From a virus, in UHGV virus genome UHGV-2188828: a stretch of 40,714 nucleotides of DNA; one strand, 5' to 3'. A model generated the notes under the pieces. It was not told the DNA's origin and made no database searches. It saw only the letters and a program-made list of their open reading frames with translations. Shown here piece by piece: positions 3,203-33,286 of this stretch. A program made the translations under genes and the position numbers. Position 1 is the first letter of the stretch. Each line of letters opens with the position of its first letter.

Positions 3203-6200
3203 TTGAGTGAAACTATAAGAAAAGTTAGTACTATTTTTACAATAGATGATAACGAGCATAATAAAAAACTTAAAGAATTAAATGCACAGTATAAACTTAC
3301 TCAAAGTGAAATAAAACTTGCTGGAGAAAGATTAAATCAATTTGGGAAGACAACAAATGATTTAAAGTATAAGGAATCTGCTTTAACTAAGCAAACAGAA
3401 ACTTTAAGAAGTAAAATTAATGTTTATAAGGACAGTATAGAAAAAGCTAGTAAAAAAGCAGAAGAAAATAATAAGAAACTTCAAGAGTTGAAAACTACAA
3501 AGGCGAGTTTGCAAAAAGAGTATAAAGAAGCAGTAAAACTTTATGGTGCAGAATCTGAACAAGCTAAAAACTTAAAGCAATCTTTAGATGAAGTCAGTAA
3601 GGAATATATAGAACAAAAAGCTGTAGTTGATAAAAACATAAACACTGTAAACAAACATAAAACTAAGCTTAATGAAACCGAAGCACAACTAGCTAAAGTA
3701 CAGGGAGAACTTAAAAGGACAACTCTAGAATTGGAAAAACAAAACTCTAAATGGATAAAGGCTAGTGAAAGTCTTAAACAAGCTGGGGATAAAATTTCTA
3801 ATTTTGGCACAAAAGCAAGTAAAGTTGGTGGAACTTTAACCAAGACAGTAACTTTACCAGTTGTTGCAATGGGAGCAGCCGCAGTAAACGCTCAAGTCCA
3901 ATGGGAAAGTGCATTTGCTGGGGTTAAAAAGACAGTAAACGGAACTTCGGAGCAAATTGCGGCACTAGAGCAAGGAATAAAAGATATGTCTTTAACACTT
4001 CCATCAAGTGCAGAAGATATTGCTGCAGTAGCAGAATCAGCTGGGCAATTAGGTATTCAAACAGATAATATTCTAGGTTTTACAAAAACCATTATAGACC
4101 TTAGTAATGCGACTAATTTAGTAGGAGAAGAAGGAGCAAGCCAACTTGCTAAGTTTGCTAACATCACACAAATGTCTCAAAAGAACTTTGATAGATTAGG
4201 AAGTACGATAGTAGCACTGGGAAATAATAGTGCAACAACAGAAGCAGATATCGTTGCAATGGCTACGAGAATAGCAGGTGCTGGTAAACAAGTTGGAATG
4301 ACAGAAGCTAATATTATGTCATTTGCAGCTGCCTTATCTAGTGTAGGAATTGAAGCCGAAGCAGGTGGTTCGAGTTTTTCTAAAGTTATGTTGGAAATGC
4401 AAATGGCTATACAAAGTGGTTCTGAATCAGTATCAGATTTTGCAAAAGTAGCTGGAATGTCAACCAAAGATTTTGCGGAAAAATTTAAAAATGATGCTAC
4501 AGGAGCATTAATAGCATTTATAAACGGATTAGGAAAATTAGATAATAAGGCAATAGTACTAGACAAATTAGGTTTTAGTGAAATAAGAGTAAGAGATTCG
4601 TTATTAAGAGCAAGTAGTGCTGGAGATTTATTTAACAAAACTATTGAGTTAGGTTCTAAGGCTTGGGAAGAAAATACCGCTTTAACAAATGAAGCTAACC
4701 AACGATATGGAACTACAGAAAGTCAGATTAAAATAACTAAAAATGAAATTATGAATTTAGCTAGGGAAATAGGAGTTGAATTACTTCCAACAATTAAAGA
4801 CGGACTAATAATGGTTAAAGATTTAATAGAGAAGTTTAATAATTTAAGTCCAGCAACTAAAGAAAATATAATAAAATTTGCTGGATTGAGTGCAGTGCTA
4901 GGACCAGTTATAGGAGGGGTTGGAAAGCTTGCTCAAGGTTTTGGTGGAATTTTAAAATTAACAGGTAAACTTTCTAAAGGATTAGGAGCAGCTAAGGTGG
5001 CAACTGAAACTGTAGGTGCGGCAGCAAGTGTAGCTGGAGGTGCTACTGGAGTAGCTGGACTTGCTAGCTCTTTGGGTGGAGTTGCTTTAGCGGCAGCACC
5101 ATATGTGGCAGCAGGGGCAGCAATAGCTGGAGCAGGATATGCAATTTACAAGGGATTGAATAAAGAAGTTATTCCAGAAGTTGATTTGTTCGCCGATAAA
5201 GTTGAGTATACCGCTAATTCTGTTACTAACTCAAGTAATTATATGACTGCTGGGGTAACTACTACAGTAACCAAAATAAGTGAAGCTACAAAGGAAGCAG
5301 TAGGGGCATATATAGAATTAGATGATAGTGCTAGAAATGAAGTGCAAAGCCTTTATATTAACTCAACAACCATTTCAGAACAGATAAAGACTGATATGTC
5401 TACTAAGTTTAACGAAATGGCTACACAAGTTATACAAGGCTATGAGAAACAGAAAAATGAAAGTACTAACCAACTTCAAGAAATGTTTTCTATCCAAAGT
5501 AGTTTAACTGCGGAAGAACAAGCAAATGTTTTATTAAACAACGGAAACTATTACGAAAATAAGAAGCTCCAAACACAAGAATATGAAAATCAAATTAATC
5601 AAATTTTAAATAATGCTAGTCAACAAAAAAGAGCATTAACACAAGATGAAGTTACTCAAATAACTTCATTACAAAATCAAATGCGGCAAAATGCAGTAAA
5701 TGCTCTAAGCCAAAATGAAATAGAAGCACAGGTTATTTTGCAAAGGATGAAAGATTATGATAGTAGAATAACTGCAGAACAGGCTTCTGAACATATTAGG
5801 AAACTTAACGAGAGTAGAGATAATGCTATAAATATAGCCAATGATGAATATGAAAAAAGAATTGCAGCGATAATTAGGCTTAGAGATGAAGCTGGAGCAA
5901 TAACTGCGGAACAAGCTGACAAAATGATTGAAGATGCTAAAAGGCAACGTGATGGAGTTGTTGAACAAGCTGAACTTACTCGTGATGAAGCTGTTGATAA
6001 GATTTTCCGAATGAATGAAGAACTACAAAAAAATATAGACGTTTCTAGTGGAGAAATTATAAGCACTTGGCAAAGGCTTTTTGGAACTTGGGACAAATGG
6101 GAACCTAAGACTAAGTTTGCTACAGTACAATATAGCGAAAGGGTAAAAGGTGGGCTTACTCAACAAGCCTATGCTTTAGGAACAAACTATTTCCAAGGTG

Positions 6201-7166: not shown

Positions 7167-9028
7167 TGATAGAAGTTTATTTAAAAACTAATAAAAATTA
7201 TGAAATGAACGGAGAGATGACTTTAGAGCCTTCTAGTTGTATTTACAAAAATAAAGAATACCTTCTAACAATAGAGCATCCATTTGATAAGCTTGAAAGA
7301 TGGAAATACTTAGATTATGAAAATGTTATAAAAACTGAAGGGAAGCTTTACAGAATTTTTAATGTTGTAAAGTCTTTAGATTATATAACTGCTTATGCCA
7401 GACCTATTTTCTTTGATTTAATAGATACAATATTACTTGATGTAAGACCAACTAATAAAACAGGGCAACAAGCTTTAGAAGAGATTTTAAAAGGTACAGG
7501 GTTTAAGGCACATAGCAATATATCAACTCTTAATACTGCTTATTACATTAGAAAAAATATAGTTGAAGCTATTCTTGGCAACGATGATAATTCTTTTTTA
7601 AACCGCTGGGGTGGAGAGATTTACTTAGATAATTTTGATGTTTATATTAATGATAAAATTGGAGCTGATAATGGGGTAAGGATTGAGTTTGGATATAATC
7701 TTAATGAAATAGAAGAGGATATAAATATCGAAGAAGTTGCTACAAGAATAATTCCTATGGGATTTGATGGATTAATGTTAGAAGGTGATACTCCATGGAT
7801 AGATAGTCCACTGATTGAGAAGTATGTTAATCCTAAAATGCGAGTTGTTAAGTTCGATGATGTTAAGGTTAAAGAATCTGAAACAGATGAAGAGGGATTT
7901 AACACTATAGAAGAAGCTAGAGCAGAACTTATAAAGCGTTGTAATAAACTTTACGAGGAAGGGATAGATAAGCCACAAGTTAATTATAAGATAGACATGA
8001 TTAACTTGGCCAATACTACAGCGTATAAAAATTATATAGATCTTGTTAAAGTAGGTGAGGGTGATACAGTAACTTGTTACGTTAAAGCTTTGGATATAGA
8101 TGTAAAAGCTAGAGTCATCGACTTTCAAAAGGATCATGTAACAGGGGAATATATAAGCATTGAATTAGGAAGTATTCAATCTGATTTTTTCAATAAACAA
8201 GCTGATATTCAAAATAAAGTTGATTCTATTTTAAATGGTAATGGTACTATTAAAGGAGATAAGATAAGCGGTGTTATAAATGCTTTAGATACTAAATTTA
8301 AAGCCTTAAGAGATGTAGCTCAACCACAAGAAGTGAGAGCGATGATATTTGAGGATAGAGTAGAAGATAGTCCTACATTTGGATGTTTAGCAATAGGTAC
8401 AATGGGATTTGAGATAGCAAGTTCTTTCAAAGCTGGTACAAAAGAATGGGATTTTAGAACATTTGGAACCGGTAAGGGCTTTGTAGCAGATTGTATAATG
8501 ACAGGGGCTTTAAAAAGTTTAAATGGAAATACAAATATAGATTTAGACAATGGTAAAGTTAAAATTAAAAGTGGTGGCTTTATCGGAAGTGATTCATGTT
8601 TTTGGGATTTGGACAAGCAACAGATAAGTGGTAAAAATCTTTTAATGGATCTACAAAATGGATTTACAAAATGGATACATGAAACTGATGGGTACACAGA
8701 AGTTAATGGGGAAGGATTTTTTAGAAATGGTAGACCATATCATAATTTAATTACAGCTGGCACTGGTGTTAGTGGTGGATTAGCTCCTAAAAAGGTACGA
8801 GTACAGTTACCAAATGAATTTAAGAATAAGGATTTTAAAGTTGTGTGTCAAATGGTAGATACTCAGGGAGGAGAAGTTGAAGAGTACCTTAAAAGAGTGC
8901 ATTTAAGTTGGGGGAATATAAATAAGGCTAATGCTACTTTTGAAGTAACTGGATATTGGACTGCTAAACTTAACCAATTTGAAAACGAAAAGGAACTACA
9001 GTGGGGGTATATAGCTATAGGAGGTTAA
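7166..9028 (+). CDS. tail-associated endopeptidase / Tal-like tail tip protein
   Basis: The N-terminus MIEVYLKTNKNYEMNGEMTLEPSS...EHPFDKLERW is typical of the phage endopeptidase-tail family. ATG 7166 lies 9 nt after RBS GGAG, and the six-frame track starts earlier at TTG 7151. Confidence 0.7.
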   Translation: MIEVYLKTNKNYEMNGEMTLEPSSCIYKNKEYLLTIEHPFDKLERWKYLDYENVIKTEGKLYRIFNVVKSLDYITAYARPIFFDLIDTILLDVRPTNKTGQQALEEILKGTGFKAHSNISTLNTAYYIRKNIVEAILGNDDNSFLNRWGGEIYLDNFDVYINDKIGADNGVRIEFGYNLNEIEEDINIEEVATRIIPMGFDGLMLEGDTPWIDSPLIEKYVNPKMRVVKFDDVKVKESETDEEGFNTIEEARAELIKRCNKLYEEGIDKPQVNYKIDMINLANTTAYKNYIDLVKVGEGDTVTCYVKALDIDVKARVIDFQKDHVTGEYISIELGSIQSDFFNKQADIQNKVDSILNGNGTIKGDKISGVINALDTKFKALRDVAQPQEVRAMIFEDRVEDSPTFGCLAIGTMGFEIASSFKAGTKEWDFRTFGTGKGFVADCIMTGALKSLNGNTNIDLDNGKVKIKSGGFIGSDSCFWDLDKQQISGKNLLMDLQNGFTKWIHETDGYTEVNGEGFFRNGRPYHNLITAGTGVSGGLAPKKVRVQLPNEFKNKDFKVVCQMVDTQGGEVEEYLKRVHLSWGNINKANATFEVTGYWTAKLNQFENEKELQWGYIAIGG

Positions 9029-12311: not shown

Positions 12312-13208
12312 ATGGACGGAATTGATATATCAAAACATAATGGAAACATAGATTTTGACAAAGTTAAATCTAGTGGCATAAATGTTATTGTAATGAAGGC
12401 CACAGAGGGTGGAAGTTATATAGACCCAATGTTAGAAAAAAATTATAAACAAGCTTTAGGCAAGGGATTTAATATTGGATTTTATCATTTTCTATATGAG
12501 TTATCTGACCCCAAAAGACAGGCTAACTGGTTCTGGCAGAACATCAAAGATAAAGAATTTAATGTAATTCCGGTTTTAGATGCAGAAAGAAATAACAATA
12601 ATAAGTTTAATAAAGAAACTTACACTAAGTTTTGTTTAGACTTCCTAGAAGAATTTAAACGACTAAGTGGAATTGATTGCATCTTATATACTTATACCCA
12701 TTTTGCTAATAGCTTAATGGATAGTAGATTAAAGCCTTACAAGTTATGGGAAGCCAACTATTATACTAATAATGGTCAAAGGCACAATAGAAAAGGGTTA
12801 ACTAACATATGGGGCAAAGACATCGTGGGACACCAGTACGCTAGCACCGGTAGAGTTAATGGAATAAATACAAATTGTGATCTAAACGACTTTGAAGAAG
12901 GCATTTTATTAAATAAGATAGAAAAGCCAAGTAAACCAGTAAATAATCCAGTTAAGGAGGAATCAAAATTGTTAGAACAATGTAAGAAACACGTATTAAA
13001 TTTTGGAGAGAAAGGAACTTATGTATACTTAGCACAAAGTGCTATGAAAGCCTTAGGTTTGTATTCCGGTGTAATAGATGGTTCATATGGTCCAGCTAAG
13101 GGAAACGGAAGTTTTTATCAAGCTGTTATCGCTTTAAATAAAATGCTAGGATTTAAAAACGATAGTCAATTAGGCCCAGCATGTTGGACTTATATTTTAA
13201 CTAAATAA
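12312..13208 (+). CDS. endolysin: GH25 muramidase with C-terminal peptidoglycan-binding domain
   Basis: The N-terminus MDGIDISKHNGNIDFDKVKSSGINVIVMKATEG...FYHF is a GH25 signature. The C-terminus has a PG_binding_1-like LAQSAMKALGLYSGVIDGSYGPAKG. Confidence 0.85.
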   Translation: MDGIDISKHNGNIDFDKVKSSGINVIVMKATEGGSYIDPMLEKNYKQALGKGFNIGFYHFLYELSDPKRQANWFWQNIKDKEFNVIPVLDAERNNNNKFNKETYTKFCLDFLEEFKRLSGIDCILYTYTHFANSLMDSRLKPYKLWEANYYTNNGQRHNRKGLTNIWGKDIVGHQYASTGRVNGINTNCDLNDFEEGILLNKIEKPSKPVNNPVKEESKLLEQCKKHVLNFGEKGTYVYLAQSAMKALGLYSGVIDGSYGPAKGNGSFYQAVIALNKMLGFKNDSQLGPACWTYILTK

Positions 13209-13245
13209 TAAGTTATAATAAAAAAGCTATACTTACAAAATAAAA

Positions 13246-13290
13246 AGAGCGATTAATCACAATAGGGGAGGATTAATCGCTCTTTTTGTT
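13246..13290 (+). terminator. rho-independent terminator after the lysis module
   Basis: 13-bp stem AGAGCGATTAATC...GATTAATCGCTCT followed by TTTTTGTTT. Confidence 0.7.
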
Positions 13291-13481
13291 TATATATGGG
13301 TTCAGGAGTATTAATTTAATTAAAACTAATACTGGTTTATTATATCAATTACAAAATAGCATAAAAATGGAAGGTAGTCAATAAATTCACTCTAATTATG
13401 TCGTAAATAGGGTTGATTTATAAATGTTATATTTATCTAAGTATTTGGTTATACTTATAAATAGCATTGTACTATACTTAT

Positions 13482-13527
13482 AAAAAGGCAGTAGGTAGGG
13501 AGTAATCCTTATCTGCTGCCTTTTTTG
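13482..13527. terminator. second, bidirectional terminator-like hairpin (AAAAAGGCAG...CTGCCTTTTTT)
   Basis: GC stem flanked by an A-run and a T-run. No ORF lies between the two terminators. Confidence 0.5.
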
Positions 13528-13646
13528 TTTGGTGGACAAATTTACCATATATATTGTAAAATAAAATTGTTCAAATATATTATTAAGATTTAAGAAAAGA
13601 TATATTCATAGTCATTAAAGAATATGCTAAATCATAGGAGGGTAAC

Positions 13647-14579
13647 ATGAGAAAAAATATCGTATCATTTTTAAATATGAAGGGTGGAGTGTGTAAAACA
13701 ACGTTATGTAAAGAAATGGCATTATATTTATCAGAAGAAGAAAATAAAAAAGTTTTAGTAATTGATATAGATCCACAAGCTAATTGTACACATTCATTTT
13801 TTGAAAAATTTAAAATAAAAGATAGATATAAAAAAAATAGTAAGTATAACGAACAATACGTTCAAGAAAAAGAAATAGTTACTTTAGATGATAACTTAGG
13901 AATACCATCAATACAAAAGATATTTACTTCTAATAGAACAATTTTTAAGAGTTTAAAGAAAGAGGACGTTATATGTGAATTAAATGATAATCTACATATT
14001 ATACCAGGTGATTTAAATACTGTTTTTATGGAAAGGAATGCAGGTGGACAAGCAGAGCAAGCATTAGTTAATTTTATAAGAAATTTAAAATTGAAAGAAT
14101 TTTATGATTATATCTTAATTGATTGTCCTCCGACATATTCATTTTATACTGTTTCAGCTATATTAGCATCAGATTTCTATTTAGTACCGTTAGTGCCGGA
14201 TATGTATTCGATATTAGGGTTAGATTTATTAGAGAAGGTAGTTAAAGATATGAGAGAAATACATGCCACACATTTTGAATATAGAAATATAGAGAATTTG
14301 GGTGTGGTATTTACTAAAATACCTGTCTCAGAGAAAGGTAGTGAAGGTGTATTAATTAGGAATATGGAAATTGTAAAAAAAGCAAAAACTTTTGAAGGAT
14401 TATATTTTTTTGAAAATAGTTTTAAGAGGGCAGTAAAAATGGAGGTTTTGAAATTAGAAACTTTCATTTTAGATAGAGAAGACACTGACTTGAGAGAAAG
14501 TCTAAGAGGGATTTGTGAAGAATTCATTAGTAGGGTAGGTGTATATAATGATAAATATGATGGAGAAACAAGCAATTAA
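13647..14579 (+). CDS. ParA/MinD-family (deviant Walker A) ATPase
   Basis: NMKGGVCKTT is a KGGxxK[ST] deviant Walker A. VLVIDIDPQAN and ILIDCPPT are ParA/Soj-like motifs. 310 aa with an extended C-terminus, and very low GC. Confidence 0.8.
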   Translation: MRKNIVSFLNMKGGVCKTTLCKEMALYLSEEENKKVLVIDIDPQANCTHSFFEKFKIKDRYKKNSKYNEQYVQEKEIVTLDDNLGIPSIQKIFTSNRTIFKSLKKEDVICELNDNLHIIPGDLNTVFMERNAGGQAEQALVNFIRNLKLKEFYDYILIDCPPTYSFYTVSAILASDFYLVPLVPDMYSILGLDLLEKVVKDMREIHATHFEYRNIENLGVVFTKIPVSEKGSEGVLIRNMEIVKKAKTFEGLYFFENSFKRAVKMEVLKLETFILDREDTDLRESLRGICEEFISRVGVYNDKYDGETSN

Positions 14580-14943
14580 CAAAATTAAGAAAATACATAA
14601 TTTAAAAGATGTGGAGTATATTAAAGGTGAACTGTATTCTATATTTTCAATTCTTATTTTTTCTAAAAAATGTTTTTCGAAAAATATTGATATAAAAGTA
14701 TTCTTAGAAAAATTTAATATGAGATTTAAAGACTATGTATATGTTTCTAGACCTAATATTTTATCAAGAGTTTTAAGAGAAATCCAAAAAGCAGATGAAA
14801 CAAGTATACGAAATATAGTAAAAATGCTACTTGATGAAATACATTATGAAAAAGAAGAGTTAAAAGAAATAAATAAAAAAAGTGAAAGTGAAAATTATTT
14901 ATTAGGAATTTTAAATAGGTATACGAGAAATGACAAAAAGTAA
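14548..14943 (+). CDS. hypothetical protein; middle gene of the ParA-like cassette
   Basis: ATG 14548 lies 7 nt after AGGTG and overlaps the ParA-like stop; the six-frame track starts at GTG 14539. Very low GC, and I recognise no motif. Confidence 0.5.
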   Translation: MINMMEKQAINKIKKIHNLKDVEYIKGELYSIFSILIFSKKCFSKNIDIKVFLEKFNMRFKDYVYVSRPNILSRVLREIQKADETSIRNIVKMLLDEIHYEKEELKEINKKSESENYLLGILNRYTRNDKK

Positions 14944-15613
14944 TAGTGATGAATATAAAGATTTTTTGAAAATGTATATACCAAAGTCATATTTTATTAA
15001 CAGTATGACTAAAAACATTTATTCAAGAATTACTGAAAATTTAGTAGTAACTGAAATATTTAAAAGTTATATTAATGAATGTGAATTAGAGTGTTATATA
15101 GAGTTTTTAGAGAACTACAAAAATAAATATAATAAGCTATTGTTATATTTGGGAATTAATGATTATGAATCTGTAACTTATTGTATAAGGAGCTTAATTG
15201 AAAATTTGTTAAAATTTATATATTCAATTTATATAATTGAGTTAAAAGAAAATATAGAAATGTTTAGCTATAGAAATATAAAAGATGAATTAATAGAGTT
15301 CAGTAAAAACGGTTTGGAAATTAATATGGAATTGATTTCTAAGTTGTTTAGTATTTACGGGGAGTATTCTAAGGTTATTCATGGGAAGGAAAATACTAAA
15401 GTATCAATAGAATACATAGTAGATATAATTGAAAATAAAAATGATAAATTAAATAATATAGATCAAATTTTATTGAAAATAATTAATATTTATGAAGATA
15501 TAATGATTGATATACTAAAAATTGAATATTTAAGTACAAGTGATTTGATAAATTTAAAAAAAATGTTAAGCAAAAAAAGGTTTGATAGATTCCAAAATAT
15601 TATAAAAGCGTAA
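14930..15613 (+). CDS. hypothetical protein; distal gene of the ParA-like cassette
   Basis: 227 aa overlapping the upstream gene by 14 nt. Extremely AT-rich, and followed by tandem terminators. Confidence 0.55.
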   Translation: MTKSNSDEYKDFLKMYIPKSYFINSMTKNIYSRITENLVVTEIFKSYINECELECYIEFLENYKNKYNKLLLYLGINDYESVTYCIRSLIENLLKFIYSIYIIELKENIEMFSYRNIKDELIEFSKNGLEINMELISKLFSIYGEYSKVIHGKENTKVSIEYIVDIIENKNDKLNNIDQILLKIINIYEDIMIDILKIEYLSTSDLINLKKMLSKKRFDRFQNIIKA

Positions 15614-15639
15614 AAATAATTCTTATAATAAAAAATTCT

Positions 15640-15681
15640 AAGCTAGTAGGTAAGAGAAATCTTATTTACTAGCTTTTTTAT
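15640..15681 (+). terminator. rho-independent terminator after the cassette
   Basis: AGCTAGTA...TACTAGCT stem followed by TTTTTT. Confidence 0.65.
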
Positions 15682-15744
15682 GTATAAAATTTAAATAGCA
15701 GATAATACTATAAATGTGTTCAGTTATTAATATCTAAATAAAGA

Positions 15745-15781
15745 GGACTAGATTAATTATAAAGTTAATCTAGTCCTTTTT
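15745..15781 (+). terminator. second tandem terminator
   Basis: GGACTAGATTAA-ttataaag-TTAATCTAGTCC followed by TTTT. Confidence 0.6.
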
Positions 15782-15994
15782 GATGTACAAAAAAATAATG
15801 TAATTTATATCTAGAGCCCTCATTAATATTATAGCATGAATAAAGAGTTTGTTGAATATAAAAATACTAGGATATTAGCCATACCCTAGTCTTAAAATTT
15901 GCAATTAATATAACAAAACAATGATTAGATTTAATATTATTTGATAATAATAAAAAATATTGAAATAATAAATAGTATCAAAATTAATAATTAA

Positions 15995-16030
15995 ATAAAA
16001 AAGCACCCAGGGCAATCTAGGTGTTTTTTG
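15995..16030. terminator. bidirectional terminator at the 3' end of the minus-strand small-gene operon
   Basis: CACCCAG-ggcaat-CTAGGTG stem with an A-run upstream and T6 downstream. Confidence 0.5.
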
Positions 16031-16036
16031 CAGAAA

Positions 16037-16186
16037 TTAAATTTTAACTACATATTCATCTCTACCAATAGCTTTAACTTCTACATTATTAGATTTTAAT
16101 AAGTCAATAAACTTATCAATACTTTCTAAAGAAGAAGAATCCACATTTAAGATTAATTCATCTTTAGTGATTCTATCTATACTCAC
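16037..16186 (-). CDS. small hypothetical protein (about 49 aa, probable GTG start)
   Basis: (V)SIDRITKDELILNVDSSSLESIDKFIDLLKSNNVEVKAIGRDEYVVKI, preceded by AGGGGGG. Below the track length cutoff, and the start is uncertain. Confidence 0.35.
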   Translation of the reverse strand: MSIDRITKDELILNVDSSSLESIDKFIDLLKSNNVEVKAIGRDEYVVKI

Positions 16187-16273
16187 AATATGATCCCCCC
16201 TAGAAGTAAATTAAAGTATAACATTATAATGTATTATATCATAACAATTTTTGAATAAAAAAGATACGCAAAG

Positions 16274-16423
16274 CTAACTACTCATCTTCTCTTTTAAATA
16301 CCATTCCTCTAATAACTTATTAACTAAAGTAGAAAGGCTTACCTGACCTTCATTCTCTATTAATTTAATTTGTACTTTCTTTTTTAAATCTTCTTCGATA
16401 TAAATAGTCGTCTTTTCTCTCAT
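16274..16423 (-). CDS. ribbon-helix-helix (CopG/Arc-like) small DNA-binding protein
   Basis: 49 aa MREKTTIYIEEDLKKKVQIKLIENEGQVSLSTLVNKLLEEWYLKEKMSS. It has an N-terminal beta-strand then two helices, typical of RHH antitoxins and repressors. RBS AGGTG is 6 nt upstream. Confidence 0.5.
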   Translation of the reverse strand: MREKTTIYIEEDLKKKVQIKLIENEGQVSLSTLVNKLLEEWYLKEKMSS

Positions 16424-16512
16424 ATATAACACCTCATAATAATTTTAGTAAGATATCATGATAATTTTATAAGATATCATTATGATGTTATACCGTTATG
16501 ACGTCATAAAAG

Positions 16513-16740
16513 TTAATAAGTATCATAAAAAAATAAAAAAACATCTACAGGATCCAGTTTTAGCTCTTTAGAAATTTTTCTAACAAATTCCATATTAACG
16601 TTGCTAAACTTACGATTTTCTATTCTGGAAAGATAACTTCTATCTACATTTAACTTTTTAGATAACTCTAATTGAGAGATGCCTAACTTTTTTCTCCTAT
16701 GTTTCAGCAAAGTGTACCACCAATATATAATTATAGACAA
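16513..16740 (-). CDS. XRE-family helix-turn-helix protein
   Basis: LKHRRKKLGISQLELSKKLNVDRSYLSRIENRKF is a classic HTH_3. The real start may be TTG at 16710 (MLKHRR...) after GGTGG. Confidence 0.55.
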   Translation of the reverse strand: MSIIIYWWYTLLKHRRKKLGISQLELSKKLNVDRSYLSRIENRKFSNVNMEFVRKISKELKLDPVDVFLFFYDTY

Positions 16741-16946
16741 TATTCAACAAGAAAAACAGGGAAAAATCTAACAATACACGAACGCTGTCGAAATGTTCAT
16801 GGTATGCACACTTTTTCGTGGTAAAATAAAGAGGAAGAGGGTTTTGTAGCTATAAAATATCTAATTCATATATAAAAAACGATTTGAATACCGAACGTTT
16901 GTTTGGTATAATTTATTTAAGAGTTTTGCAAGAGGGGAGAGTTAAT

Positions 16947-17066
16947 ATGAGCAGTAAATACATCAGGGGGACTAGCAAAAAAGAATTAAACACAGAAAAA
17001 TTGCTAAGATTAGAAAAAGATTTTTATAGGATATTAACTGAATTAAAAGATGGTATTTATGAATAA
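16947..17066 (+). CDS. small hypothetical ORF (39 aa)
   Basis: MSSKYIRGTSKKELNTEKLLRLEKDFYRILTELKDGIYE after RBS AGAGGGGAGAG. Its 3' end overlaps the left arm of the 48-bp palindrome. Confidence 0.3.
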   Translation: MSSKYIRGTSKKELNTEKLLRLEKDFYRILTELKDGIYE

Positions 17067-17096
17067 GAGATAATACTCTGATTCATAAATACCATC
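17049..17096. promoter_or_regulatory. 48-bp quasi-palindrome immediately downstream of the serine integrase gene: candidate attP core and/or bidirectional terminator
   Basis: GATGGTATTTATGAAT-aagagataatactctg-ATTCATAAATACCATC has perfect 16-bp arms and a 16-bp partly palindromic spacer. It lies between the convergent small ORF and the integrase gene. Confidence 0.45.
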
Positions 17097-17102
17097 ATAA
17101 AT

Positions 17103-18557
17103 TTAAAAAATTATCTTTATTTTTCCGCCTTTTCTGGAGTTGGGTTTAGGAAACCAAAGAATTTTATCAAGCATCAATTTTAACACTCTTTGCTTTTCAT
17201 TAACAGAGGTACATCTATTGAATTTTTCCCATAGGGATTTTACAGTTAGGATATTATTCATTTTAAAGCTATCATTAATTTTAATATCCATATCCGTTAA
17301 TTCGTTTTTTAAAGTTTCAATTTCTGTGTTGACGGAATTTATTTTATCAATAATAAGTCCTGAAACATTAGTAGGAACGAGAGCTAATTTTTCTATTAAC
17401 CCATTTAAAATAGCAGTTTGTTTTTTTATTTTATTAGAAATAGTTTTTTTCTGATCTATCAATCCAGAATTATCAACGGTTCCTATTTCTATCTCCCCAT
17501 CCACAACAGATCTAAGATAATCAATAACTAACTCTTCTAATTTATCTACAGGAATATTTCTTCCGCACTTACATTGCTTTCTGACTATATTTTTGCCGTG
17601 GGTCACATCTATTCTGTAGCTGGAGTTACAGTAACCACAATACACGCTTTGAGCAAGAAACGTCTTACTAGATATTCTTGGTTTTGGATCTATAGAGTTT
17701 TCCTTGATTAAAATTTGTGATTTAATAAAATCTTCTGCCGAGATTAATGGTGTATGTTTTGAAGTCGCTATTATTGTTTCATCTTTAAAGGAGTTTCTCA
17801 TAAGACTTGGGCCTTTTACATTATTGAATATTTGTAAACCTAATGATGAGAAATATTCAATAGTTTGTTCATTATATTCTGTATATACAGGATTAGTTAA
17901 TAATTTTTTTACGTTAACCCTGCTTAACTTGTAATTTAAATCATCTGATAACTTTTTGCTTATTTTTTCTAGGGAATAACCCTCCAATAACCATTTAAAA
18001 GCATATAAAGGAATGTGCTTTTTTGATTCATCAATTTGCAGATAAGGAACCTTTTTCCCGGCTACCTCCTCTTTTATAGATTTATATCCTACTGGTGAAT
18101 TACCTCCAGACCATTGCCCTAATTTTGCTAATTCTTTCTTGTTATCTATTACTCTGCTCCTTAGATTCTCTCTTTCTATTTCAGCAAAGTTTGCTATTAT
18201 ATACATCATCATTCTACCTAAAGGTGTGCTAGTATCGAATTGCTCGGTTACAGATAAAAATTTAACTTCATTTTTTTCAAACTTTTCATAGATCTTTATG
18301 AAGTCTATTACATTCCTGGCAATTCTATCTAACTTATATACTGCTACAATATCAAATTTTTTCATTCCAACCATCTTCATCATTCTGCTAAAAGATGGTC
18401 GGTTTGTATTTTTTCCACTAAATCCTTCATCTTCAAAAATTTCGAATTTGACACTCTTGCCACTAAAGTAGGATTTTATTATTTTAATTTGATTCTCTAT
18501 ACTCTCGCCCTTATCGGTTAAAACTGATTTTCTAGAATAAATTGCTACTCGTATCAT
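17103..18557 (-). CDS. large serine recombinase (phage integrase)
   Basis: 484 aa. MIRVAIYSRKSVLTDKGESIENQ is a resolvase-type catalytic N-terminus with the nucleophilic Ser. A recombinase domain, a Cys-rich zinc ribbon (CGYCNSSY...CKCGR) and a coiled coil follow. Confidence 0.9.
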   Translation of the reverse strand: MIRVAIYSRKSVLTDKGESIENQIKIIKSYFSGKSVKFEIFEDEGFSGKNTNRPSFSRMMKMVGMKKFDIVAVYKLDRIARNVIDFIKIYEKFEKNEVKFLSVTEQFDTSTPLGRMMMYIIANFAEIERENLRSRVIDNKKELAKLGQWSGGNSPVGYKSIKEEVAGKKVPYLQIDESKKHIPLYAFKWLLEGYSLEKISKKLSDDLNYKLSRVNVKKLLTNPVYTEYNEQTIEYFSSLGLQIFNNVKGPSLMRNSFKDETIIATSKHTPLISAEDFIKSQILIKENSIDPKPRISSKTFLAQSVYCGYCNSSYRIDVTHGKNIVRKQCKCGRNIPVDKLEELVIDYLRSVVDGEIEIGTVDNSGLIDQKKTISNKIKKQTAILNGLIEKLALVPTNVSGLIIDKINSVNTEIETLKNELTDMDIKINDSFKMNNILTVKSLWEKFNRCTSVNEKQRVLKLMLDKILWFPKPNSRKGGKIKIIF

Positions 18558-33193: not shown

Positions 33194-33286
33194 GGAGATA
33201 TAACCCTAATTGGTAAGGGAGCAACTTGCTAAGTTGTCAGTAATCGAGTAATCGGTGTATAGGTTCAAGTCCTATTATCTCCGCCA
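33194..33286 (+). tRNA. tRNA-Ser (anticodon GCT), long variable arm, encoded CCA
   Basis: I folded it by hand. The acceptor stem is GGAGATA/TATCTCC, the D-arm CCCT-aattggta-AGGG, and the anticodon stem GCAAC/GTTGT with loop TTGCTAA. A 21-nt variable arm precedes a T-arm ATAGG-TTCAAGT-CCTAT, then G and CCA. Length 93 nt. Confidence 0.7.

Follow-up and report, generated by a model that had tools for sequence, protein, structure and literature searches.

ParA/Soj-type ATPases, which belong to the SIMIBI class, have until now been known as proteins that position DNA or protein cargo. To our knowledge, bacterial immunity systems rely on ABC/OLD, AAA+, STAND, SMC or HerA ATPases. Here, a cassette of three genes with a ParA/Soj-family ATPase gene at its head is described from the UHGV virus genome UHGV-2188828. 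The whole stretch of 40,714 nucleotides that was analyzed is referred to as the window. It is predicted to be an integrative temperate siphovirus of a Clostridium-like host and it encodes a large serine recombinase. The cassette occupies 13647-15613 as three plus-strand open reading frames (ORFs), at the coordinates given by an earlier sequence-only reading, and its genes are designated g1, g2 and g3, together the triad. It is a widespread, unnamed and partly mis-annotated three-gene module, not a one-off. On present evidence, there is an even chance that the triad is an autonomous, mobile, ATPase-gated conflict module with a role in defense, in abortive infection or in a toxin-antitoxin-like process.

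The closest described systems fall into four groups. In type Ib partition systems (ParF/ParG of TP228 and delta/omega of pSM19035), a short ParA without an N-terminal helix-turn-helix (HTH) domain is followed by a small, translationally coupled downstream partner gene. The triad shares this arrangement, and g1 is similar to delta, ParF and Soj. It differs in having no ribbon-helix-helix (RHH) or HTH partner, no centromere repeats and a third gene for a 227-aa protein. Type Ib systems are on low-copy plasmids, whereas the triad is in integrated prophages and islands. Mycobacteriophages can carry parABS in the integrase slot; in some temperate ones, the parABS cassette replaces the integrase, and both ParB and the parS sites are present. 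In both cases a temperate phage has a ParA gene in its integrase region, but the triad phage keeps its integrase and has neither ParB nor parS.

ParA/Soj-HEPN gene pairs (the MAE_18760 family) were predicted to be toxin-antitoxin systems (Anantharaman et al. 2013, PMC3710099), and the literature searched contained no experimental follow-up of this pair. The pair and the triad share a ParA/Soj gene, a helical, possibly HEPN-like protein, a location on mobile DNA and the logic of an ATPase controlling an effector. The triad has an extra adaptor gene. The HEPN protein of MAE_18760 carries the Rx4-6H motif, while g3 lacks it, matches no HEPN family of Pfam consistently and is not recognizably MAE_18760. 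By analogy, we rate the triad as related in logic to this predicted pair, as an ATPase-plus-effector conflict module. HEPN abortive-infection proteins of prophages include HepS of Gifsy-1 (PMC13043305), Tha of S. aureus prophages (PMC11087260) and AbiF of C. difficile phages (PMC12373285). They are accessory-slot cargo of prophages expressed in the lysogen, with a helical effector and an Arg/His-type site, features that are predicted for the triad as well. In contrast to g3, they have the canonical Rx4-6H, and none of them uses a ParA-type ATPase; HepS acts as a single protein.

The three proteins and their conserved residues

The g1 protein matches Pfam AAA_31 (E = 1.6e-34, passing the cut-off), CbiA and phrog_164 "ParA-like" (E = 8.7e-45). 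The ParA motifs recognized in the sequence-only reading are present: the deviant Walker A motif KGGVCKTT with its signature lysine, IDIDPQ and IDCPP. ParA/Soj/MinD (SIMIBI) ATPases are defined by a deviant Walker A of the form xKGGxxK[ST], a Walker A' (DxD) and a Walker B aspartate. K12, K17, T18, D40, D42 and D159 are invariant across nine triad ParAs of very different hosts. Thus, g1 is a standard ParA/Soj/MinD ATPase, predicted to be catalytically competent. It scores under the cut-offs of every specific NCBIfam partition equivalog. Its relatives in the PDB are Soj, delta of pSM19035, PF-32, archaeal ParA, McdA and ParF. The unusually long C-terminal extension ascribed to g1 earlier is not supported. 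The alignment to phrog_164 extends as far as residue 303 of 310, and family members share a conserved C-terminus. A variable Lys-rich insert at residues ~50-105 accounts for the extra length. A reading of g1 as a BY-kinase was rejected because the C-terminal tyrosines are not conserved, and weak Pfam matches to Cnd1/condensin and to a TNP-like family are noise below the cut-off.

In the model of the g2 protein, residues 1-108 form a helical domain, and a Lys-rich, disordered linker comes next; at the C-terminus is a short conserved aromatic/basic motif. This motif is RYTRNDKK in Clostridia and ERFKR, GWLK, GWR, SWY or GWIK in other lineages. N46, F52, Y63, S67, R68 and R74 are invariant. The sole family match is phrog_6264 (E = 8.8e-11), a family without known function; there is no match in Pfam, NCBIfam, PADLOC or the PDB, including a profile search against PDB sequences. 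The comparison with hhalign of the window family and the E. coli homologue gave 96% probability (E = 2.4e-9). A scan of genome contigs with g2 gave no match, nor did pattern scans of IMG/VR with the g2 and the g3 alignments; alignments of distant members proved too diverse for such scans.

For g3, 82 cluster representatives were found among 1.84 billion proteins. No consistent Pfam or NCBIfam match is seen among 70 members, PADLOC has no match, and a profile search revealed no significant sequence relative in the PDB. Each of the g3 proteins of phages LF1 and Javan1 is a singleton in a set of 50,697 phage records, the tblastn search of g3 against phage records found none, and a scan of genome contigs with g3 found one locus. 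R87, S147 and H151 are invariant in the 70 members, and E91, N77 and P18 are nearly so. In an alignment of 12 sequences, with copies from E. coli, Fusobacterium and Streptococcus among them, R87 and H151 are invariant, E91 and Y143 are nearly invariant, and position 147 is Ser or Cys, with Cys in place of Ser in the copies from these three. R87, E91, Y143, S/C147 and H151 are therefore regarded as a putative active site.

The AlphaFold model of g3 has a pLDDT of 84, and the Foldseek search against the PDB was uninformative. The modeled fold is all-alpha and possibly, though weakly, HEPN-like. The HEPN motif Rx4-6H is absent: R87 is followed by E91 and N92 instead of His, and H151 is 64 residues away from R87, past a different helix. 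When curated HEPN models were applied, one of the 70 members matched HEPN_STY4199 (E = 0.01); no other HEPN model of Pfam and none of NCBIfam matched.

The dN/dS ratio (nonsynonymous to synonymous substitution rates) is 0.08-0.14 for g1, 0.38-0.53 for g2 and 0.22-0.40 for g3, values to be read qualitatively, as dS is saturated in the more distant pairs. All three are real genes under purifying selection. The fast divergence of g3 together with its active-site-like invariant polar residues is typical of conflict effectors. The combination of a conserved ParA, fast-diverging g2 and g3 and invariant polar residues in g3 resembles a conflict system with an enzymatic effector.

Distribution and mobility of the triad

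Many backgrounds carry the triad with the order, sizes and overlaps of its genes preserved, and the homology was established by BLAST and hhalign. In five Clostridia metagenome contigs (L003, L004, L007, L019 and L026), it directly follows the holin and lysin genes, and a prophage of Dethiothermospora halolimnae also carries it. It is present in Lactobacillus phage LF1 (318/141/233 aa), where it separates the repressor region from the integrase gene, in Lactococcus garvieae phage PLg-TB25 (276/135/251 aa), in Fusobacterium vincentii (282/118/229 aa) and in E. coli lambdoid prophages (283/137/221 aa). The identical E. coli triad is found in 16 of 5,426 complete genomes, and ~50 more have a diverged triad. 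The g3 protein aligns by hhalign with that of PLg-TB25 at 95% probability (E = 3.4e-8), with LF1 at ~51% (E = 1.6e-4), with Javan1 at ~18% (E = 1.4e-3) and with E. coli at ~7% (E = 5.1e-3). Even in the three weak comparisons, the Arg-x3-Glu and His motifs align.

Annotation of these genes is inconsistent; "chromosome partitioning ATPase" and "carboxypeptidase D-like protein" are among the labels now in use. In Streptococcus phage Javan1 (L002, MK448665), the order is repressor, ParA, g2, g3 and integrase. Its g2 homologue is an unannotated ORF of 113 aa at 4917-5258 with the motif YVMRSRTMIVARLTREI, and the whole triad is present. In Latilactobacillus phage TMW 1.1447 P1 (L010, OQ240259; region 3228-5124), g3 is a full 228-aa ORF at 4438-5124 that is annotated as 141 aa. 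The gene at the ParA position there has a SAP-domain N-terminus, an "X" and only the C-terminal part of a ParA-like protein; it is either a disrupted ParA or an assembly gap. L009 has a decayed triad at 7273-8583, in which g2 is intact but ParA is reduced to a fragment and g3 to a piece of 65 aa; it lies amid IS200/IS605 transposase genes and a gene for a PemK toxin. In L015, a tRNA-like 3' fragment, GGTTCGATTCC, is at ~1040-1090, ~60 nt upstream of the ParA gene. There is no complete tRNA, and the fragment may be a remnant of an att site.

The borders of DNA similarity coincide with the borders of the module. Between the window and a group of copies at 77% identity, similarity begins exactly at the ParA ATG (13647) and extends to 15606, near the stop codon of g3. 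A 96%-identical copy (L020-L022) shares 13469-15973 with the window. Past 15973, the lysogeny module beside this copy is a different one and encodes a tyrosine integrase, ImmA and XRE, not a serine recombinase. The promoter hexamers upstream of g1 are kept upstream of the triad in L003, L026, L019 and L017, which differ in phage and host background, and the cassette appears to have its own promoter, traveling with the module. These patterns indicate that the triad is a discrete, horizontally mobile and insulated module of prophages and islands. The sequence-only reading had proposed a laterally acquired, insulated moron in the slot between lysin and integrase, and this proposal, including the location, is borne out.

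Its argument from base composition stands in part. The GC content of the window is 30.2%, and g3 (19.6%, z = -3.6) and g2 (21.0%, z = -3.2) are the lowest two among 48 genes, but g1 (26.9%, z = -1.1), which had also been called low, is ordinary for this phage. The different codon usage claimed for the cassette was not found. The GC content at third codon positions is 0.15-0.19 in g1, g2 and g3, inside the genome range, and the deficit is at codon positions 1 and 2. K, I, N and Y make up 42-46% of residues against ~30%, and the low GC content of g2 and g3 is thus due to their amino-acid composition, not to codon usage. Acquisition of the cassette is far better supported by the comparative data than by codon usage.

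The triad is found at the edge of chromosomally integrated prophages, at several different integration sites. In contigs of Clostridia, lysin and triad are followed by type IV pilus genes, efp and spoIIIA in one case and by cotJCBA and gltS in another, and the triad is followed by the host genes murT and gatD in a third. Elsewhere, triad and integrase are followed by lepA and dnaJ. The Fusobacterium copy has ispA-like and uppS/cdsA genes on its two sides and neither phage nor integrase genes nearby. Because this copy stands alone among housekeeping genes, the triad seems to be self-sufficient.

In E. coli strain 164, the triad adjoins a prophage integrase gene. A full-length type IV restriction enzyme (PADLOC mREase_IV; DUF262/GmrSD-like) is encoded 0.9 kb downstream of it, and a type II methyltransferase and an ORC/CDC6 ATPase are encoded on the other side. 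In the E. coli chromosomal loci L029 (1-10722) and L031 (2687-9902), the triad is in integrase-proximal cargo with an HsdM-like methyltransferase and an ORC/CDC6 AAA ATPase, to which the type IV restriction enzyme is added in strain 164. This cargo region looks like a prophage defense hotspot. The interval between repressor and integrase, where LF1 and Javan1 have the triad, is a site of superinfection-exclusion genes in phages of lactic acid bacteria. In L007 (4641-6720), a metagenomic relative, the genes after the triad encode an HTH_3 protein, a segregation ATPase of the actin-like type (ALP_N) and a NikA-like protein. The context is plasmid-like or that of a phage-plasmid, with its own type II partition system.

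Layout of the cassette and the surrounding phage

The features of the window are listed in Table 1. The overlaps noticed earlier are confirmed: the g1 stop codon (14577-14579) falls within g2, and g2 and g3 share 14 nt. The overlap of g1 and g2 is 32 nt if g2 starts at the ATG at 14548, which is preceded by the better ribosome-binding site (RBS), GGGTAGGTG, and 41 nt if it starts at the alternative GTG at 14539. A good RBS, AGGAGGG, is ahead of g1.

Table 1. Features in and around the cassette, with positions in the window.
Feature	Position	Strand	Description
GH25 lysin gene	12312-13208		upstream of the cassette
Hairpin with T-run	13238-13291	+	inverted repeat I9, 21-nt arms, 95% complementary; terminates the lysis operon
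Intrinsic terminator-like hairpin	13482-13525	+	20 pairs and T-run; just upstream of the cassette promoter
Predicted sigma-70-type promoter	13533-13562	+	TGGACA, 18-nt spacer, TAAAAT; 10/12 consensus match
5'-leader box TAAGAAAAGATATATTC	13591-13607	+	kept in upstream alignment A6, window vs. 77%-identity group
g1	13647-14579	+	ParA/Soj-family (deviant Walker A) ATPase, 310 aa
g2	14548-14943	+	orphan helical protein, 131 aa
g3	14930-15613	+	orphan all-alpha protein, 227 aa
Intrinsic terminator of the cassette	15640-15675	+	16 pairs and T-run
Second downstream hairpin	15744-15777	.	T-runs on both sides, bidirectional terminator-like
Arc-like RHH ORF	16274-16432	-	phrog_582, E = 0.013
Large serine recombinase gene	17103-18557		downstream of the cassette

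The flanking terminator hairpins of the sequence-only reading were all recovered, and a terminator scan gave five terminator-like sites against 0.4 expected from shuffled sequences. The hairpin behind the lysis operon is an upstream insulator outside the mobile module. The hairpin just upstream of the promoter and the second downstream hairpin are both inside the 96%-conserved module. DNA around the leader box is not conserved in the same upstream alignment, and the box may be an operator or a leader element. The 190 nt between the two upstream plus-strand terminators (13291-13481) contain no convincing ORF and no Rfam match; they could represent a small transcript or a remnant of earlier cargo. 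The Rfam scan of 13000-17200 gave only chance hairpin matches.

The gene order of the phage is BhlA holin, GH25 lysin, the cassette, a minus-strand Arc-like/XRE region, the large serine recombinase, a CI-like repressor, early genes, terminase, portal and capsid. The terminase and its counterpart in C. tetani phage phiCT453B share 58% identity. A megablast search of the region and 23.6 kb of the phage against the 50,697 phage records found no close relative; a 474-nt stretch of the phiCT453B terminase was the sole match.

The minus-strand module at 16037-16492 comprises the Arc-like RHH ORF, a 49-aa ORF downstream of it (16037-16186), a minus-strand terminator (16023-16004) and, directly upstream of the RHH ORF, a 21-bp tandem repeat of 2.8 copies (16434-16492). 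No other triad locus has a counterpart of this module, which may represent a switch under autoregulation or a toxin-antitoxin pair. The RHH gene and its 21-bp iterons (16274-16492) were considered as a ParG-like partner of g1 and rejected; they are on the other strand and 0.7 kb off, and have no homologue at other triad loci. A phage tRNA-Ser gene with the anticodon GCT is at 33194-33286, and phage tRNAs can offset anticodon-nuclease defenses.

Possible functions of the triad

A conflict module is favored because of the promoter-equipped mobility of the triad, its placement near prophage and restriction genes, the conservation pattern of its proteins and the 2013 prediction of ParA/Soj-HEPN pairs. 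The cassette would be transcribed from its own promoter in the lysogen. g1 would act as an ATP-dependent dimerization switch, possibly as a nucleoid- or DNA-bound sensor, and g2 would be an adaptor whose disordered tail and C-terminal motif touch the ATPase or the effector. g3 would be the effector, kept inactive until an infecting phage or another trigger disturbs the ATPase cycle. Through the conserved Arg/Glu/Tyr/(Ser or Cys)/His cluster, possibly on a HEPN-like helical scaffold, g3 would then hit a cellular target, perhaps RNA, with an abortive-infection, defense or toxin-antitoxin-like outcome. The defense role, the toxicity and effector role of g3 and its gating by g1 and g2 are all inferred. 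A ParA-based defense or abortive-infection system had been among the earlier suggestions. It is still the best fit, on the basis of context and sequence features. That the triad represents a new class of prophage or island immune or abortive-infection system, built of a ParA switch, an adaptor and an Arg/Glu/Tyr/(Ser or Cys)/His effector, is a more tentative proposal. Such a system would span Clostridia, lactic acid bacteria, Fusobacterium and E. coli.

Several points weigh against a conflict module. The closest characterized relatives of g1 are all segregation or positioning ATPases. Neither g1, g2 and g3 nor the E. coli and Fusobacterium copies have a full-length match in PADLOC-DB v2.0.0; the lone match is that of the g1 Walker A loop (residues 5-42) to PDC-M28B (E = 2e-4). 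Adjacency to defense genes was examined case by case in a handful of loci, and g3 could be cargo or a regulator, not a toxin. The literature searched contained no characterized ParA-based anti-phage system and did not mention the accessions of the E. coli triad proteins.

Partition was another function suggested early, with the implication that the phage can persist as a plasmid. In a non-canonical version, segregation of an episomal phage genome, for example after excision or during establishment, would be the task of ParA, g3 and g2, the last as an adaptor of a novel kind that binds a centromere. g1 is indeed a bona fide ParA/Soj-family protein, with Soj, delta (pSM19035), PrgP, RepA, ParF and PF-32 as its nearest characterized relatives. 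A conserved "SR...R" helix in g2 is loosely like an HTH recognition helix, its tail is flexible as in ParA partners, the relative L019 has no integrase between the triad and the early genes, and parABS of mycobacteriophages occupies the integrase slot. Nevertheless, such a function is improbable, because no ParB, ParG or iterons accompany the triad. g2 and g3 have no ParB, HTH or RHH signature, g2 has no such match by sequence or fold, and no centromere-binding partner (ParB HTH or ParG/omega RHH) is encoded by parA, which agrees with the earlier view that this is not a canonical parAB module. Apart from chance AT-rich matches in two copies, 13200-16300 contained no repeat family; the triad is not flanked by centromere-like repeats, whether iterated or inverted, and upstream conservation is limited to promoter and leader. 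The triad co-occurs with integrases and is found in chromosomally integrated prophages at no fewer than four host sites, and once alone amid housekeeping genes. No replicon in need of segregation was seen: the prophages are by efp/spoIIIA, cotJ and lepA/dnaJ, and the Fusobacterium copy is by ispA-like/uppS. No genuine plasmid copy turned up when 72,556 plasmid records were searched by tblastn with g1 and g2; the "plasmid" match of E. coli is a 44.6-kb circular lambdoid phage record, and that of Fusobacterium is a 2.1-Mb replicon. Of 68 matches in E. coli, 67 are on the chromosome. L007, moreover, already has an actin-like ALP segregation ATPase beside the triad.

Two further readings retain the ATPase but not the anti-phage role or the toxin. 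As an addiction or stabilization module, toxin-antitoxin-like and without an anti-phage role, the triad would use ParA as an ATP-dependent antitoxin of g3. The small autonomous module at the edges of mobile elements, the solitary chromosomal copy in Fusobacterium and the decayed copy among insertion sequence elements are in line with this, and the 2013 ParA/Soj-HEPN prediction covers the arrangement; but there are three genes rather than two, no autoregulatory DNA-binding antitoxin is present, and many toxin-antitoxin systems double as defense, in which case this reading overlaps with defense. It is unlikely on balance. Positioning of a phage-encoded product was the third early suggestion. A positioning or regulatory device without a toxin, in which ParA, g2 and g3 control or localize some process of the host or the phage during lysogeny, is rather unlikely; it might exclude DNA at its site of entry, interfere with division or with the nucleoid, or control the lysogeny switch. 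ParA/MinD ATPases are generic positioning machines, as the McdA-type matches recall, the triads of LF1 and Javan1 are co-oriented with repressor and integrase genes, and the fold of g3 is only weakly enzyme-like. Yet the invariant Arg/Glu/Tyr/(Ser or Cys)/His set of g3 looks catalytic, not structural, and the module is present outside phages and in hosts as unrelated as Clostridia and E. coli, which argues against cargo specific to one host or phage.

The triad is readily testable, as it is 2 kb long, appears to have its own promoter and is present in lysogens that can be cultured: those of Lactobacillus phage LF1, Lactococcus garvieae PLg-TB25 and Latilactobacillus curvatus TMW 1.1447, and E. 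coli O103:H2, whose triad proteins are WP_000211299, WP_001039225 and WP_000941575. The finding corrects "partition protein" labels, which could wrongly suggest a plasmid lifestyle for triad phages. If the triad is a toxin-antitoxin system, it would offer the first look at the arrangement of ParA/Soj and a helical toxin predicted in 2013. If it acts in defense or abortive infection, a ParA-type ATPase would join the machinery of bacterial immunity, together with two new protein families, one of them probably with a new effector chemistry.

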